Shown: positions 2,868 through 62,929 of the stretch, one piece after another
How positions within the stretch are numbered: position 1 is the first letter of the stretch
Layout of the letters: each line of letters opens with the position of its first letter
Source: Candidatus Omnitrophota bacterium
GTDB taxonomy: Bacteria; Omnitrophota; Gorgyraeia; Gorgyraeales; Gorgyraeaceae
Direction: 5' to 3'
Length of the DNA stretch: 64,000 bases
Assembly (NCBI GenBank): GCA_043814965.1
Contig: JBDRJN010000033.1
Coordinates: 1,379-65,378 of the forward strand
Notes under the pieces: generated by a model
Told to the model about the DNA's origin: nothing
The model's input: only the letters and a program-made list of their open reading frames with translations
Database searches by the model: none
Position numbers and translations under genes: made by a program

Positions 2868-3920
2868 ATGGCAATACTAATTACCAGTATGATATGGGTG
2901 TCTGTAGTCCTTGCGGTGGCTTTGGTCTTTTCAAGAAAGATCAAGGATAAATTAGTAAAAGACAACGAGGATAAGATCAATGTGCTTCGCTCAGAATGGA
3001 GTGATACTCTTTCTAGGAATACACAATTGATCCTGGACCAGATGAATGAGGCCAGGAAGCTTTCTCAAGATGTAAATAGCTCTATAAATAACAGGCTGGA
3101 TAATGCTACAAAGACTTTTGGCGATGTACAGAAGAGCCTTGGTTATCTCGGAGAGAGGGCCAAGGAGATATATGAGATAGGAAAGGATATATCCAGCTTA
3201 CAGGAGATCCTGAGGGCTCCAAAGATGAGAGGCGGGCTGGGGGAGCTCTTTTTGGAGAACCTATTAGGAGAGATATTGCCTCATAAAGACCTTTATGAGC
3301 TTCAGTATAATTTTAAAAGCGGGGAAAGGGTGGATGCGGTCATAAAGATAGGCAATAAGCTAGTAAGCGTTGATTCAAAGTTCCCTCTTGAGAGTTTCAG
3401 GAGGTTTATTGATGCAAAGGAAGAAGAGGATAAAAAGCGTTTTAAAAGGGAATTTGTAAAAGCAGTAAAGGACCATATAGATTCGATAGCTGCTAAATAT
3501 ATCCTTCCGGATGAAAATACCTATGATTTTGCATTGATGTATATACCTGCTGAAAATGTCTATTATGAGGCTATCATCAAAGATGATAATTTTGCAGATG
3601 GAAATTCTATTTTCTCGCAGGCTATATCCAAGAAAGTGATACCAGTCTCACCAAATAGTTTTTACGCGTATCTACAGGTCATAATCCTGGGTATCAGGGG
3701 CCTTCGCATAGAAAAAGATACTCAAGCTGTCATAAAGATGCTGGGGGCCTTAAAAGTGAACTTCTATAAATTCAGAGAGGAATTTAGTATACTAGGTTCG
3801 CATATAGAGAAGATAAAGTCCAGCTATGATAGGAGCGATAAGAGGCTGGATAGATTCGAGAACAAGCTATCCTCCATAGATTCTTTTGATAAAAAGAAAG
3901 AACCAAAAGAAATAGAATGA
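2868..3920 (+). CDS. rmuC: DNA recombination protein RmuC
   Basis: N-terminal transmembrane helix, coiled-coil region, and the conserved RmuC block KMRGGLGELFLENLLGEILP...VDAVIKIGNKLVSVDSKFPLESF. Confidence 0.75.
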   Translation: MAILITSMIWVSVVLAVALVFSRKIKDKLVKDNEDKINVLRSEWSDTLSRNTQLILDQMNEARKLSQDVNSSINNRLDNATKTFGDVQKSLGYLGERAKEIYEIGKDISSLQEILRAPKMRGGLGELFLENLLGEILPHKDLYELQYNFKSGERVDAVIKIGNKLVSVDSKFPLESFRRFIDAKEEEDKKRFKREFVKAVKDHIDSIAAKYILPDENTYDFALMYIPAENVYYEAIIKDDNFADGNSIFSQAISKKVIPVSPNSFYAYLQVIILGIRGLRIEKDTQAVIKMLGALKVNFYKFREEFSILGSHIEKIKSSYDRSDKRLDRFENKLSSIDSFDKKKEPKEIE

Positions 3921-3977
3921 TCCCGGAGAGCGGCTCAGTTTGGCTAGAGCGTCCGCCTTTAGGCGGAAGGCTCTGAG
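3921..3977 (+). pseudogene. tRNA-like 5' fragment: acceptor and D-arm resembling tRNA-Pro, with a short hairpin in place of the anticodon arm and no T-arm
   Basis: cggagagcggctcagtttggctagagcg matches 24 of 28 positions of the tRNA-Pro 5' half at 4234. It continues as tccgcctttaggcgga (5-bp stem, 6-nt loop), which cannot be a functional anticodon loop. No T-arm follows. Confidence 0.4.
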
Positions 3978-3979
3978 TT

Positions 3980-4231
3980 ATGTTTTATACTTATGTATTG
4001 AGAAGCAGAAAAAATAATAAGATATATAAAGGGCATACCAAAGATTTACAGAATAGATTGTCACAGCATAATACTGAGAATAGTAAAAAGAAATTTAGTT
4101 GTATAAATGGACCCTGGGAATTGATGTTTTTTGAAACTTTTAATACGAGGTCTGAAGCAATGAGGTATGAAAAGTTTTTAAAAACAGGCAAAGGCCGTGA
4201 ACATATAAGGGAAAAGATAGCTGAATTATAA
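3980..4231 (+). CDS. small GIY-YIG nuclease-domain protein (UPF0213/YhbQ-like)
   Basis: MFYTYVLRSRKNNKIYKGHTKDLQNRLSQHN...PWELMFFETFNTRSEAMRYEKFLKTGKGR contains the GIY-YIG signature: Y-x-Y-V-L, Y-K-G, R-L-x-Q-H-N and a downstream Glu. Wedged between the tRNA-like fragment and tRNA-Pro. Confidence 0.8.
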   Translation: MFYTYVLRSRKNNKIYKGHTKDLQNRLSQHNTENSKKKFSCINGPWELMFFETFNTRSEAMRYEKFLKTGKGREHIREKIAEL

Positions 4232-4233
4232 GG

Positions 4234-4311
4234 CGGGGAGTAGCTCAGTTTGGCTAGAGCGCTGCGTTCGGGACGCAGAGGCCGCTGGTTCAAGTCCAGT
4301 CTCCCCGACCA
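4234..4311 (+). tRNA. tRNA-Pro (anticodon CGG)
   Basis: Manual cloverleaf: acceptor CGGGGAG/CTCCCCG, D-arm GCTC-AGTTTGGCTA-GAGC, anticodon arm CTGCG-TTCGGGA-CGCAG, T-arm GCTGG-TTCAAGT-CCAGT, discriminator A, encoded CCA. Confidence 0.8.
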
Positions 4312-4324
4312 TAAGAATAGTTGT

Positions 4325-4402
4325 GGGGAGTGGACTTGTATTTTGTTAGAGCGTCCGCCTTGGGCGGAAGGCCGCTGGTTCAAGTCCAGTCTCCCCGACC
4401 AT
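4325..4402 (+). pseudogene. tRNA-like pseudo-copy: degenerate 5' part, hairpin in place of the anticodon arm, then an exact 33-nt copy of the tRNA-Pro 3' end
   Basis: 4369-4401 (aggccgctggttcaagtccagtctccccgacca) is identical to 4279-4311 of tRNA-Pro. No D-stem can be formed. The anticodon position holds tccgc-cttgg-gcgga (5-nt loop), the same hairpin type as at 3949. Confidence 0.5.
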
Positions 4403-25828: not shown

Positions 25829-25900
25829 CTAATGATAAAGGCATCAATTTAGGTAAGGGTAATGGTACGATGCCCGTTTCGTTTATCGGCCACGGTTACG

Positions 25901-25920
25901 CCTGCCTGCCGGCAGGCAGG
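25901..25920. repeat. 20-bp perfect GC palindrome CCTGCCTGCCGGCAGGCAGG in the pgk-tpiA spacer
   Basis: Self-complementary; flanked by imperfect extended inverted repeats. The half-site CCGGCAGGCAGG recurs at 41735. Confidence 0.6.
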
Positions 25921-25993
25921 TTACCTTTACCGATACGGGCTTCTTTACCGTAGCCGTTACCGAGAAAATAATTTATAAATACAAGGAGGTATT

Positions 25994-61618: not shown

Positions 61619-61619
<1 letters not shown>
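61242..61619 (+). CDS. acpS: holo-[acyl-carrier-protein] synthase
   Basis: GIDIIEVSRI...FACKESVLKALG motif; 125 aa. Confidence 0.85.
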
Positions 61620-62563
<944 letters not shown>

Positions 62564-62630
62564 TTTGATAGAGTTTAAGGTAGTGTAGGATTCGAATGGA
62601 GTCCGCTATATACGACGAATAGGAGTATAT

Positions 62631-62691
62631 GTTTAGCGGACGGATGGCCGACCCGCCCAAAGGCGGGCGCCGAATCCTCCTCTGCCCACCA
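62631..62691 (+). repeat. tRNA-Tyr-associated element: conserved module tttagcggacggatggccgacccgcccaaaggcgggcgc plus an exact 21-nt copy of the tRNA-Tyr 3' end (CGAATCCTCCTCTGCCCACCA)
   Basis: 62671-62691 is identical to 62539-62559. The preceding ~38 nt are near-identical to 62871-62908 downstream of tRNA-Thr. Confidence 0.7.
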
Positions 62692-62772
62692 AAAATTTTA
62701 TTATACAAAATTTTTGGTGAGGTCTCGTCCGTCAGTGAAACTGACGAGACGGACCCACCATGATTTTATTAA

Positions 62773-62848: not shown

Positions 62849-62870
62849 TAATTTTAGAAGTAGAAGCTTA

Positions 62871-62929
62871 TATAGCGGACGGATGGCCGACCCGCCAAAG
62901 GCGGACGCCGATTCCTCTCGCCAGCTCCA
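62871..62929 (+). repeat. tRNA-Thr-associated element: the same conserved module plus an exact 21-nt copy of the tRNA-Thr 3' end (CGATTCCTCTCGCCAGCTCCA)
   Basis: 62909-62929 is identical to 62828-62848. Module tatatagcggacggatggccgacccgccaaaggcggacgc matches the Tyr-associated copy. Confidence 0.7.

Follow-up and report, generated by a model that had tools for sequence, protein, structure and literature searches.

What is the gene for a minimal GIY-YIG nuclease doing between a fragment of a tRNA-Pro gene and an intact tRNA-Pro, with a second tRNA-like remnant close behind? The question is raised by positions 3921-4402 of a 64,000-nt stretch of a Candidatus Omnitrophota bacterium genome (contig JBDRJN010000033.1), here called the window, whose numbering is used unless another locus is named. 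An initial annotation of the window had proposed either that a GIY-YIG cassette invaded or duplicated the tRNA-Pro gene, or that the locus is the scar of an integrase att site. Comparison of filled and empty sites in relatives bore out the first proposal. We conclude, with a probability of roughly 60%, that the Pro locus is one copy of a large family of homing-type selfish cassettes located in or beside bacterial tRNA genes. The parts of the locus are as follows.

3924..3951, plus strand: left pseudo-copy, tRNA-Pro 5' part (acceptor 5' strand and D arm, tRNA positions 1-28), 25/28 identical (89%) to 4234-4261
3952..3967, no strand assigned: left GC hairpin or palindrome TCCGCC-TTTA-GGCGGA in place of the anticodon arm, 6-bp stem and 4-nt loop
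3968..3979, plus strand: linker AGGCTCTGAGTT, aligned with relatives L001 and L003 (AGGCC[G/A]CGAGTTT-ATG)
3980..4231, plus strand: predicted 83-aa minimal GIY-YIG nuclease gene, UPF0213 or prokaryotic Slx1-like (Pfam, PDB matches, AF2 model)
4234..4311, plus strand: intact tRNA-Pro(CGG) (ARAGORN; Rfam 64.7 bits)
4312..4353, plus strand: spacer, then the degenerate 5' portion of the right pseudo-copy (GGGAGTGGACTTGTATTTTGTTAGAGCG), 61% identical to the 5' end of the tRNA
4354..4368, no strand assigned: right GC hairpin TCCGCC-TTG-GGCGGA, 6-bp stem and 3-nt loop, in the anticodon-arm position
4369..4402, plus strand: tRNA-Pro 3' duplicate (variable loop, T arm, acceptor 3' strand, ACCA) and one flanking T, 34/34 identical to 4279-4312

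These parts are closely packed, with 3 nt between the rmuC stop codon and the left pseudo-copy and 2 nt between the stop codon of the open reading frame (ORF) and the intact tRNA-Pro(CGG). The intact tRNA, the GIY-YIG gene and the tRNA-Pro-like 5' fragment were all recovered as the initial annotation had described them, as was a second pseudo-copy that combines a degenerate 5' part with an exact copy of the tRNA 3' end. That copy spans the tRNA from variable loop to CCA (33 nt) and takes in the flanking T, and the resulting direct repeats stand 90 bp apart. Hairpins at the anticodon position had also been claimed and are present in both pseudo-copies, but as 6-bp stems with 4- and 3-nt loops, not as a 5-bp stem with a 6-nt loop. 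Scored with tRNA predictors, neither pseudo-copy is canonical: ARAGORN called neither, the Rfam tRNA model gave 22.2 bits for 4326-4395 (under its 29-bit threshold) and no match for 3921-3977, and the loops of 3-4 nt are not 7-nt anticodon loops.

The linker at 3968-3979 looks like a degenerate variable loop followed by the T-stem 5' strand and the first T-loop bases, and GGAAGG, which lies across the hairpin end and linker start ~8-13 nt before the ATG, is a possible Shine-Dalgarno candidate. The distance from hairpin end to ATG is 11-13 nt in the window, L001-L007, L012 and L009 (start codon corrected), and varies at other loci of the Pro clade. On the right side, the 5' arm within 4312-4353 is alignable to the corresponding region of L001 and can pair with the duplicated tRNA 3' end into a long stem (inverted repeats I3 and I4); the predicted RNA fold of the right pseudo-copy has an energy of -38.7 kcal/mol (z = -3.8), and counterparts of this pseudo-copy are present in L001, L010 and L039. 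The motif CCGCC-N3-6-GGCGG occurs four times in the 64 kb against an expectation of 0.01, which is far above chance, and all four occurrences adjoin tRNAs.

Alignment of the rmuC-tRNA-Pro site among relatives showed the cassette to be an insertion that is present or absent between close relatives. Filled sites L001 and L003 were found through homologues of the nuclease, and sites L095, L090 and L088 by a metagenome scan with an RmuC alignment; a single-protein query had returned no relatives, and an alignment of three sequences was needed. In L001 and L003, rmuC is followed by a tRNA-Pro 5' fragment, a TCCGCC-TCA-GGCGGA hairpin, a 13-nt linker, the GIY-YIG gene and an intact tRNA-Pro(CGG), and L001 also carries a downstream pseudo-copy like that of the window. 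In L095, L090 and L088, rmuC is followed by a single intact tRNA-Pro without GIY-YIG gene, hairpin or pseudo-copy, and none of the relatives compared had the three-unit arrangement without a GIY-YIG gene. Both the filled L006 and the empty L095 come from metagenome sample 3300013125. Identity between L003 and the empty L095 extends through the flank ttgacttaatgtg into the tRNA, covering its first 27 nt; next in L003 come the hairpin, the ORF and a tRNA-Pro that differs in sequence. Because rmuC of L003 is nearer to that of the empty L095 (94% nucleotide identity) than to that of the filled L001 (91.5%), the cassette was gained or lost between close relatives.

The tRNA sequences at this site also point to exchange. 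Intact tRNA-Pro sequences differ between genomes. The 3' part of the right pseudo-copy of L001 is identical over 33/33 positions to the intact tRNA-Pro allele of L003 and differs at ~8 positions (read by eye) from the intact tRNA of L001 itself, which in turn is identical to the empty-site tRNA of L095, including 6 nt of upstream flank. This mosaic indicates that different tRNA alleles have been brought together at the rmuC-tRNA-Pro site. The left 5' fragment matches the tRNA-Pro of its own genome at 27/27 to 29/29 positions in L004, L009, L012 and L013, at 26/27 in L001 and L003, and at 25/28 in the window. When the window is compared with L001 or L003, synonymous ORF sites have reached saturation (dS 1.8-3.3), and all 12 stem positions of the left hairpin and the AAGGC that follows it are unchanged. 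These comparisons showed conservation of both the nuclease gene and the hairpin stems by selection. The window's right pseudo-copy is exact in its 3' part and has drifted to 61% identity on the left of its hairpin. Outer tRNA pieces thus appear fresh and inner pieces old, and we read the outer pieces as derived from the target, being either target DNA or sequence that gene conversion keeps like it; the hairpins and the inner pieces we read as putative ends of the element itself.

The same tRNA site has been colonized by more than one cassette lineage, as L001 (2651-2908 and 2909-2928) and L089 (2690-3048) carry a second GIY-YIG subtype, 32% identical, between rmuC and tRNA-Pro with repeats of its own (ggccgttcgccgatgttttagtggcgaac). 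At L004 (230-345), the cassette of L003 is present with an identical protein in another upstream context, and homology between the two begins exactly at tRNA-like position 1. Inverted GGGGACGTGTC / GACACGTCCCC repeats in the L004 flank suggest that a further element, or the breakpoint of a rearrangement, lies at the tRNA fragment.

Three points would fit 3'-end duplicates left as attL/attR remnants of deleted tRNA-targeting integrative elements: insertion by an integrase is classically marked by directly repeated tRNA 3' ends, tRNA genes are favoured integration sites, and relatives have different sequence downstream of tRNA-Pro. No integrase was found near the locus, either in the ORF list or by Pfam; the neighbours are RmuC and two ORFs of 74 and 461 aa, neither of which has a Pfam match. 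The repeats are 81-132 bp apart and enclose no kb-scale insert, the left pseudo-copy is a copy of the tRNA 5' part, not of the 3' part, and one conserved hairpin stands before the copies at each of three tRNAs. The architecture moreover travels with the GIY-YIG gene across 80 loci, many tRNAs and many phyla. The att-scar half of the initial proposal was therefore rejected as exceedingly improbable.

The sole GIY-YIG ORF in the 64-kb window is that at 3980-4231. Its product matches Pfam PF01541 (GIY-YIG) at 66.2 bits against a cutoff of 22.6, with residues 1-72 of 83 covered. Searches of PDB with phmmer returned two UPF0213 proteins, 1zg2 (BH0048, E 4e-5) and 1ywl (EF2693, E 3.5e-4). An AlphaFold2 (AF2) model of the 83-aa protein (pLDDT 89), used with Foldseek, matched 1zg2 (E 5e-4) and the Slx1 nuclease domains (TM 0.64-0.69), ahead of UvrC (TM 0.56) and I-TevI (TM 0.49). 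The predicted fold, a three-stranded sheet with helices, is closest to Slx1/UPF0213 and not to I-TevI or UvrC. The predicted catalytic residues Y5, Y16, G18, R26, H30 and E64 are invariant among 19-21 homologues, and dN/dS values of 0.07-0.35 against relatives indicate that the nuclease gene is maintained by selection. The 83 residues, with the GIY-YIG domain covering 1-72, hold no DNA-binding domain of the NUMOD, helix-turn-helix or zinc-finger kind. By sequence and model, the protein is predicted to be a minimal Slx1/UPF0213-type nuclease. The initial annotation had called it homing-endonuclease-like; a homing-type role is supported, but the protein is of the minimal Slx1/UPF0213 kind and not a classical two-domain homing endonuclease. 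A look-up of the exact GIY-YIG sequence returned no record, and a 100% identical NCBI protein assigns the DNA to a Candidatus Omnitrophota metagenome-assembled genome. Most family members have 79-100 aa, and a profile search recovered 23,329 clusters (50% identity) at E<=1e-3 and 5,906 at E<=1e-10.

For a family-wide survey, one genome per species was scanned with a protein alignment and the best 80 of 384 relatives were examined; the loci are thus the best matches to one motif and not a random sample of the family, and their tRNAs were called by ARAGORN only. Linkage to tRNA genes was shown across this set. A same-strand tRNA lies within ~100 nt of 71 of the 91 small GIY-YIG ORFs (upstream only for 30, downstream only for 40, on both sides for one), and none of the 91 has an adjacent tRNA on the opposite strand. 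Gaps to an upstream tRNA are 0-113 nt (<=63 nt in 28/30), and at downstream-tRNA loci the ORF stop codon is often inside the tRNA. Where no tRNA was scored, hairpin-bearing tRNA fragments are still present or the contig ends.

The far side of the ORF almost always holds a partial copy of the same tRNA with one or two GC hairpins, and direct duplication of tRNA parts around the cassette is thus shown. When the tRNA is downstream, the order is tRNA 5' part, hairpin(s), a linker of 9-41 nt (mostly 11-22), ORF and intact tRNA. When it is upstream, the intact tRNA is followed after a short gap by the ORF, the end of which overlaps a tRNA 5' part, then by a hairpin and a tRNA 3' part; about half of these loci have an additional fragment, consisting of a 5' part and hairpin with no ORF, upstream of the intact tRNA. 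Tandem arrays, some of which include tRNA flank or a second ORF, are present at L024, L037, L054, L025 and L066, and decayed copies of the cassette also occur among the loci.

Nuclease lineages were shown to be tied to particular tRNA species across phyla: protein clades track the identity of the adjacent tRNA and not the host phylum. Two clades are linked to tRNA-Ser (Patescibacteria, Gammaproteobacteria, Bdellovibrionales), and the Pro clade comprises Omnitrophota and Planctomycetia. An Arg-ACG clade occurs in Acidobacteriota and an Arg-TCG clade in Bacteroidota, with further clades for Cys, Gly, Asn, Val/Ile and Met. Cassettes are present in Flavobacterium at L076, L083 and L014. Both the tRNA-upstream and the tRNA-downstream arrangement are found within single protein clades. 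Recurrence of the architecture in independent NCBI, ENA and JGI assemblies argues against an assembly artefact.

Short GC hairpins within 200 nt of the ORFs are 9.4-fold enriched (5.18 vs 0.55 per kb), in a search that demanded perfect stems and so under-counted imperfect hairpins. Their cores are mostly CCGCC/TCCGC, and the outer stems show compensatory variants (TCCGCC/GGCGGA, GTCGCC/GGCGAC, CCCGCC/GGCGGG and TGCGCC/GGCGCA). The hairpin occupies the D arm of the pseudo-copy in L084 and L068, the anticodon arm at Pro, Arg-ACG and Gly loci, and the T loop (positions 55-58) in L074, L079 and the units that follow tRNA-Tyr and tRNA-Thr in the window.

Such hairpins invite comparison with hairpin-ended transposons of the IS200/IS605 or REP/RAYT kind (REP, repetitive extragenic palindromic). 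The GC hairpins would then be true termini and the GIY-YIG protein a structure-specific transposase acting on single-stranded DNA, which would cut at the hairpins and insert into the folded strand of a tRNA gene, with the tRNA-like pieces picked up from earlier targets. The elements of the window, L001 and L039 each have a hairpin at either end, and many loci have hairpins on both sides. The outer stem covaries around a constant GCC/GGC core with a loop of 2-4 nt, and this combination of covariation and varying loop length fits a hairpin better than a duplex binding site. The nearest predicted fold, Slx1, cuts branched and stem-loop DNA, and units without an ORF have inverted-repeat arms that covary with the tRNA end, like those of miniature inverted-repeat transposable elements (MITEs). 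Against this, target parts are always duplicated, directly and over 20-110 nt, sometimes with flank (L104, L024, L037), which is unlike known hairpin transposons; the hairpin varies in position inside the pseudo-copies and is one-sided at most tRNA-downstream loci; and HUH (Y1) TnpA was not found, the sole ORF of the element being GIY-YIG. We know of no GIY-YIG transposase in prokaryotes. A hairpin transposon is the main mechanistic rival of the homing-type cassette, and we consider it unlikely.

A further palindrome in the window lies between pgk and tpiA (25838-25965). It is imperfect and ~110 nt long, with an 18-nt perfect core, CTGCCTGCCGGCAGGCAG, which is also the core of the hairpins of Bacteroidota Arg-TCG cassettes (L014, L044). 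The palindrome has neither a tRNA nor a GIY-YIG gene in its neighbourhood and may be an unrelated REP-like element or a terminator.

Units that contain no ORF follow tRNA-Tyr and tRNA-Thr in the window, 58 kb from the nuclease gene. The initial annotation had counted tRNA-Pro as the third tRNA with a downstream 3' duplicate and a GC hairpin, and the 21-nt copies below confirmed the other two; no 3'-end copy of this sort accompanies tRNA-Met or tRNA-Gly of the window. The parts of the Tyr unit were placed by eye from the fold of 62579-62692.

62560..62691, plus strand: ORF-less hairpin unit after tRNA-Tyr (fold z = -4.6; homologues in L098 and L104)
~62579-62593: 5' arm of the Tyr unit (from the fold)
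~62601-62640: hairpin 1 of the Tyr unit (from the fold), then CGGATGGCCGA
62652-62667: GC hairpin of the Tyr unit, then CGC
62671-62691: exact 21-nt copy of the tRNA-Tyr 3' end, T-loop C56 to CCA
62849..62929, plus strand: ORF-less hairpin unit after tRNA-Thr, with a module shared with the Tyr unit (TAGCGGACGGATGGCCGACCCGCC...); homologue in L098
62892-62904: GC hairpin of the Thr unit
62909-62929: exact 21-nt copy of the tRNA-Thr 3' end, T-loop C56 to CCA

A CCGCC-loop-GGCGG hairpin precedes each tRNA copy. The units were compared over the syntenic cluster of DAC, PdxJ, ACPS, NAD(P)HX dehydratase and tRNA-Tyr/Gly/Thr from seven relatives. L098 has ~135-nt units after both tRNA-Tyr and tRNA-Thr (2510-2655 and 3010-3155), and L104 has a unit after tRNA-Tyr (~2566-2700) with a canonical TCCGCC-GAA-GGCGGA hairpin, and 34 nt of its downstream flank are duplicated as well. 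In L102, tRNA-Thr is followed by a 3'-end copy of the Tyr type; the cluster is without any unit in L099, L100, L106 and L108. The common order is a 5' arm (A)GGATTCGAATGGAG, hairpin 1, CGGATG(G/A)CCGA, hairpin 2, CGC and the tRNA 3' end. Across three species, the stems of hairpin 1 are wholly different (TCCGCTA/TAGCGGA, TCCCGCGCTG/CAGCGGGA and CTTTGC/GCAAAG), and hairpin 2 has stems CCCGCC/GGCGGG, CCCT/AGGG and CTTCATCC/GGATGAAG; a sub-loop, ACGACGAAYAGGAGTA, is conserved in Omnitrophota units. The 5' arm pairs and covaries with the copied tRNA end (GGATTCG/CGAATCC for Tyr; GGAATCG/CGATTCC for Thr in L098), and the predicted folds agree on a long outer stem around two hairpins. An Rfam search of the Tyr and Thr units returned noise only and no family. 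By this covariation, the Tyr/Thr-type units are a conserved structured family in Omnitrophota, and their alignment showed that ORF-less derivatives exist. They may be non-autonomous relatives of the cassette or functional structured RNAs; we favour the former because close relatives differ in having them.

The second possibility belongs to a broader reading in which nothing is mobile: the hairpin-bearing units would be functional structured RNAs of tRNA operons (for processing, stability or as decoys), and the GIY-YIG protein a housekeeping enzyme of repair or RNA metabolism co-transcribed with tRNAs by chance. Tyr and Thr units do occupy orthologous positions in the window, L098 and L104, with conserved single-stranded motifs and compensatory stems, and their long outer stem mimics an acceptor/T-arm helix with a free CCA. 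Hairpin stems and ORF are under purifying selection, and prokaryotic Slx1-like proteins are regarded as vertically inherited repair enzymes, with a tRNA methyltransferase fusion known (PMC1564403). A host function does not sit well with presence and absence at the same loci among close relatives, a patchy distribution across phyla in clades tied to tRNA type and not host, tandem multi-copy arrays and decayed copies, or several GIY-YIG subtypes at one rmuC-tRNA-Pro site (L001, L089). Hairpin positions vary and no Rfam family was matched. We hold this reading to be improbable, and less likely than a hairpin transposon.

Several other features were observed in the Tyr-Thr cluster. In the window, the NAD(P)HX dehydratase ORF (61619-62563) has no stop before tRNA-Tyr (62474-62559) and runs ~90 nt into and beyond it, so the gene end and the tRNA overlap. 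Two more hairpins lie between the Tyr unit and tRNA-Thr (62686-62760), of which the first (caccaaaaatttt...aaaatttttggtg) is formed with the CCA end that belongs to the duplicate and the second is ggtctcgtccgtcagtgaaactgacgagacggaccc. In L098, AT-rich repeats (gttgttag / aacaactaaaaactaa) at 2660-2770, 2845-2933 and 3160-3250 flank the tRNAs and units and form long inverted repeats around tRNA-Gly. L102 has a more YhbQ-like 84-aa GIY-YIG gene (3469-3723) between tRNA-Gly and a second tRNA-Thr, with no obvious CCGCC-type hairpins.

Three further identities were tried for the pseudo-copies and units and set aside. A suppressor or otherwise odd tRNA could be drawn in L001 and L003 (4-bp stem, 7-nt loop CCUCAGG, anticodon UCA); the loops differ between copies (TTTA, TTG, TCA, GGA and others), position 33 would be C, the left copy of the window would have an 8-nt loop, and neither ARAGORN nor Rfam accepted the pseudo-copies. 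A group I intron or split tRNA gene was rejected, as an Rfam search at the locus (E<=10) gave no group I intron match and an intact tRNA follows the ORF. A CRISPR/OMEGA-like guide, with a scaffold followed by 21 nt matching a tRNA, was rejected since the supposed guide is duplicated flank, there is no gene for an RNA-guided nuclease, and the identical architecture elsewhere duplicates tRNA 5' parts.

Repeated hairpin units directly beside a nuclease gene also recall toxin-antitoxin or defence modules, in which the nuclease would be a toxin acting on tRNA or DNA and the hairpin tRNA mimics would be RNA decoys or antitoxins, as in type III systems. A tRNA-like shape could serve as a decoy, and overexpression of SegB, a GIY-YIG homing endonuclease of phages T4/T6, is toxic (PMC13096335). 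PADLOC gave non-significant matches only, the weak match to PDC-S14 (E ~0.01) among them. Hairpin units are found to either side of the ORF, and some, such as the Tyr and Thr units of the window, have no ORF nearby; the pseudo-copies are partial duplications of the adjacent gene that include non-transcribed-looking flanks, which indicates events at the DNA level. We consider such a module very unlikely.

For the homing-type cassette, we infer a cleavage target and a route of transfer as follows. The nuclease would break DNA in or next to a tRNA gene, probably recognizing a hairpin or branched structure, as Slx1 does. Host recombination would repair the break via the tRNA-homologous arms of the cassette, and repair would copy the cassette into a naive tRNA gene or amplify it in tandem, leaving parts of the tRNA directly repeated. 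The gene always has an intact tRNA beside it, so the host loses nothing and would remain viable, and the ORF would probably be driven by the resident tRNA promoter; promoter and terminator scans around the Pro and Tyr/Thr loci gave nothing above shuffled expectation. Since tRNA sequences are nearly universal, the same homology arms would work after horizontal transfer.

Several points weigh against this account. No cleavage site, target or transfer intermediate was observed, and sequence-specific homing is hard to picture for a catalytic domain that lacks a DNA-binding domain. The tie between nuclease lineage and tRNA type could be mere co-inheritance of the ORF with its homology arms. The intact tRNA of L001 equals that of the empty L095, so a nuclease that cleaves intact tRNA genes would also hit the copy in its own element; this immunity paradox could be met either by cutting at the hairpin or, by analogy with what is reported for SegB, by tolerated self-cutting that fuels amplification. 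The varying position of the hairpin (D, anticodon or T arm), together with pseudo-copies at some loci that have no hairpin at all, argues against a simple fixed element terminus. Persistence of the Tyr and Thr units at orthologous sites despite saturated divergence would allow a host function in place of selfishness. The comparison data are contigs from metagenomes and metagenome-assembled genomes, and some host labels may be binning errors. Finally, a right-hand pseudo-copy as in the window was found at 3/33 tRNA-downstream loci, plus L010, and the assignment of the left fragment to the resident allele in L001 and L003 is based on one nucleotide and the flank. For these two reasons, a split resident tRNA with a cargo tRNA was downgraded as a general model.

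The closest functional analogue of the homing-type cassette is SegB, which is encoded in the tRNA gene cluster of phages T4/T6 (PMC2330249; PMC13096335). SegB cuts inside tRNA genes at RAWTSGAAC, the reverse complement of the T loop, and drives recombination-dependent (UvsX/UvsY) tandem amplification of tRNA and segB; phage segB genes are statistically co-localized with tRNAs of many isotypes (PMC13096335). The cassettes likewise place a GIY-YIG gene among tRNA genes and form tandem arrays, and several of their junctions lie in the T loop, as the SegB target does, at positions 55/56 in three units of the window and in L074 and L064. Unlike the 83-aa protein, a catalytic domain alone of the Slx1/UPF0213 lineage, SegB has ~220 aa with a DNA-binding domain and belongs to the HEase/UvrC lineage. 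SegB is a phage protein, whereas the cassettes are in bacterial chromosomes, and SegB loci are not described with the hairpin-capped partial tRNA copies or ORF-less derivatives that the cassettes possess. As in free-standing homing endonucleases, the ORF lies outside any intron or intein and is present or absent among close relatives, and the mosaic tRNA-Pro alleles of L001 and L003 and the 5' parts that match their own tRNA hint at co-conversion.

The closest structural analogue is provided by the mobile ORF elements (mORFs) of fungal mitochondria (Allomyces atp6; Glomus atp6, atp9, cox2 and nad3), in which a LAGLIDADG or GIY-YIG ORF is inserted at a gene end with a duplicated terminus. The gene stays functional, the native terminus is left as a remnant beside the ORF, and the duplicated parts can be foreign (PMC3630166), much as the right pseudo-copy and the intact tRNA of L001 are different alleles. 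Unlike mORFs, the cassettes target tRNA genes, duplicate a 5' or a 3' part, have a hairpin-modified remnant and reside in bacteria. With tRNA-targeting integrative elements, the cassettes share tRNA-end direct repeats around an insert and an intact tRNA; they differ in having no integrase, inserts of 60-420 bp, 5'-part duplications and a conserved hairpin at the junction. The ORF-less units resemble REP/RAYT systems and MITEs in being short, palindromic, gene-less, conserved in structure and related to the ends of a small-nuclease element. RAYTs, in contrast, are HUH enzymes, and REPs are scattered by the hundreds across intergenic regions, whereas the ORF-less units are few, strictly follow tRNAs and each end in a copy of the 3' end of their own tRNA.

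Prokaryotic members of the Slx1-like/UPF0213 family have been treated as vertically inherited repair enzymes (PMC1564403). By sequence and model, UPF0213/COG2827 and eukaryotic Slx1 share the fold and catalytic residues of the cassette protein, and the activity of Slx1 on branched or stem-loop DNA suits the cassette hairpins. In the open-access and bioRxiv literature, we found no report of tRNA linkage, a hairpin partner or mobility for UPF0213, and no description of chromosomal minimal GIY-YIG genes with hairpin-capped tRNA fragments, an absence of evidence. Because the cassettes lack the DNA-binding domain that marks classical homing endonucleases, the features that define integrase att sites and the HUH transposase of IS200/IS605 elements, we place them as a variant of free-standing GIY-YIG selfish nucleases that is a member of none of these groups. 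The kind is widespread and apparently undescribed.

A wider proposal can be put forward tentatively, as a whole that we hold to be somewhat short of an even chance. Minimal Slx1-like GIY-YIG proteins and their cognate GC hairpins would form a distinct class of mobile element, which might be called tRNA-gene homing cassettes. The class would include autonomous copies (nuclease and hairpin-capped tRNA arms) and MITE-like non-autonomous copies (the Tyr and Thr units); its 80-aa nuclease would recognize a DNA hairpin or cloverleaf and not a sequence; and integration, in whatever bacterial phylum, would rely on the homology that near-universal tRNA sequence provides. On this view, selfish DNA that drives tRNA duplication and allele replacement would account for much of the UPF0213/COG2827 "repair nuclease" family.

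The findings suggest that many small bacterial "repair" nucleases are mobile elements. The ~5,900 clusters (E<=1e-10) that carry the generic annotation "GIY-YIG nuclease family protein" and are taken for repair enzymes may drive a selfish element linked to tRNA genes. If true, this would explain short ORFs that overlap tRNA genes, tRNA fragments and "tRNA-like" hairpins, annotation oddities in genomes of Omnitrophota, Patescibacteria, Bacteroidota, Acidobacteriota and others. A nuclease of 83 aa with a short, defined hairpin partner could also be a very small structure-specific reagent, and the system should interest specialists in mobile elements, nucleases and tRNA biology. The homing-type cassettes would extend the SegB finding of tRNA-gene cutting and tandem amplification from phages to bacterial chromosomes, and they offer a mechanism for tRNA gene duplication and for the horizontal replacement of tRNA alleles.

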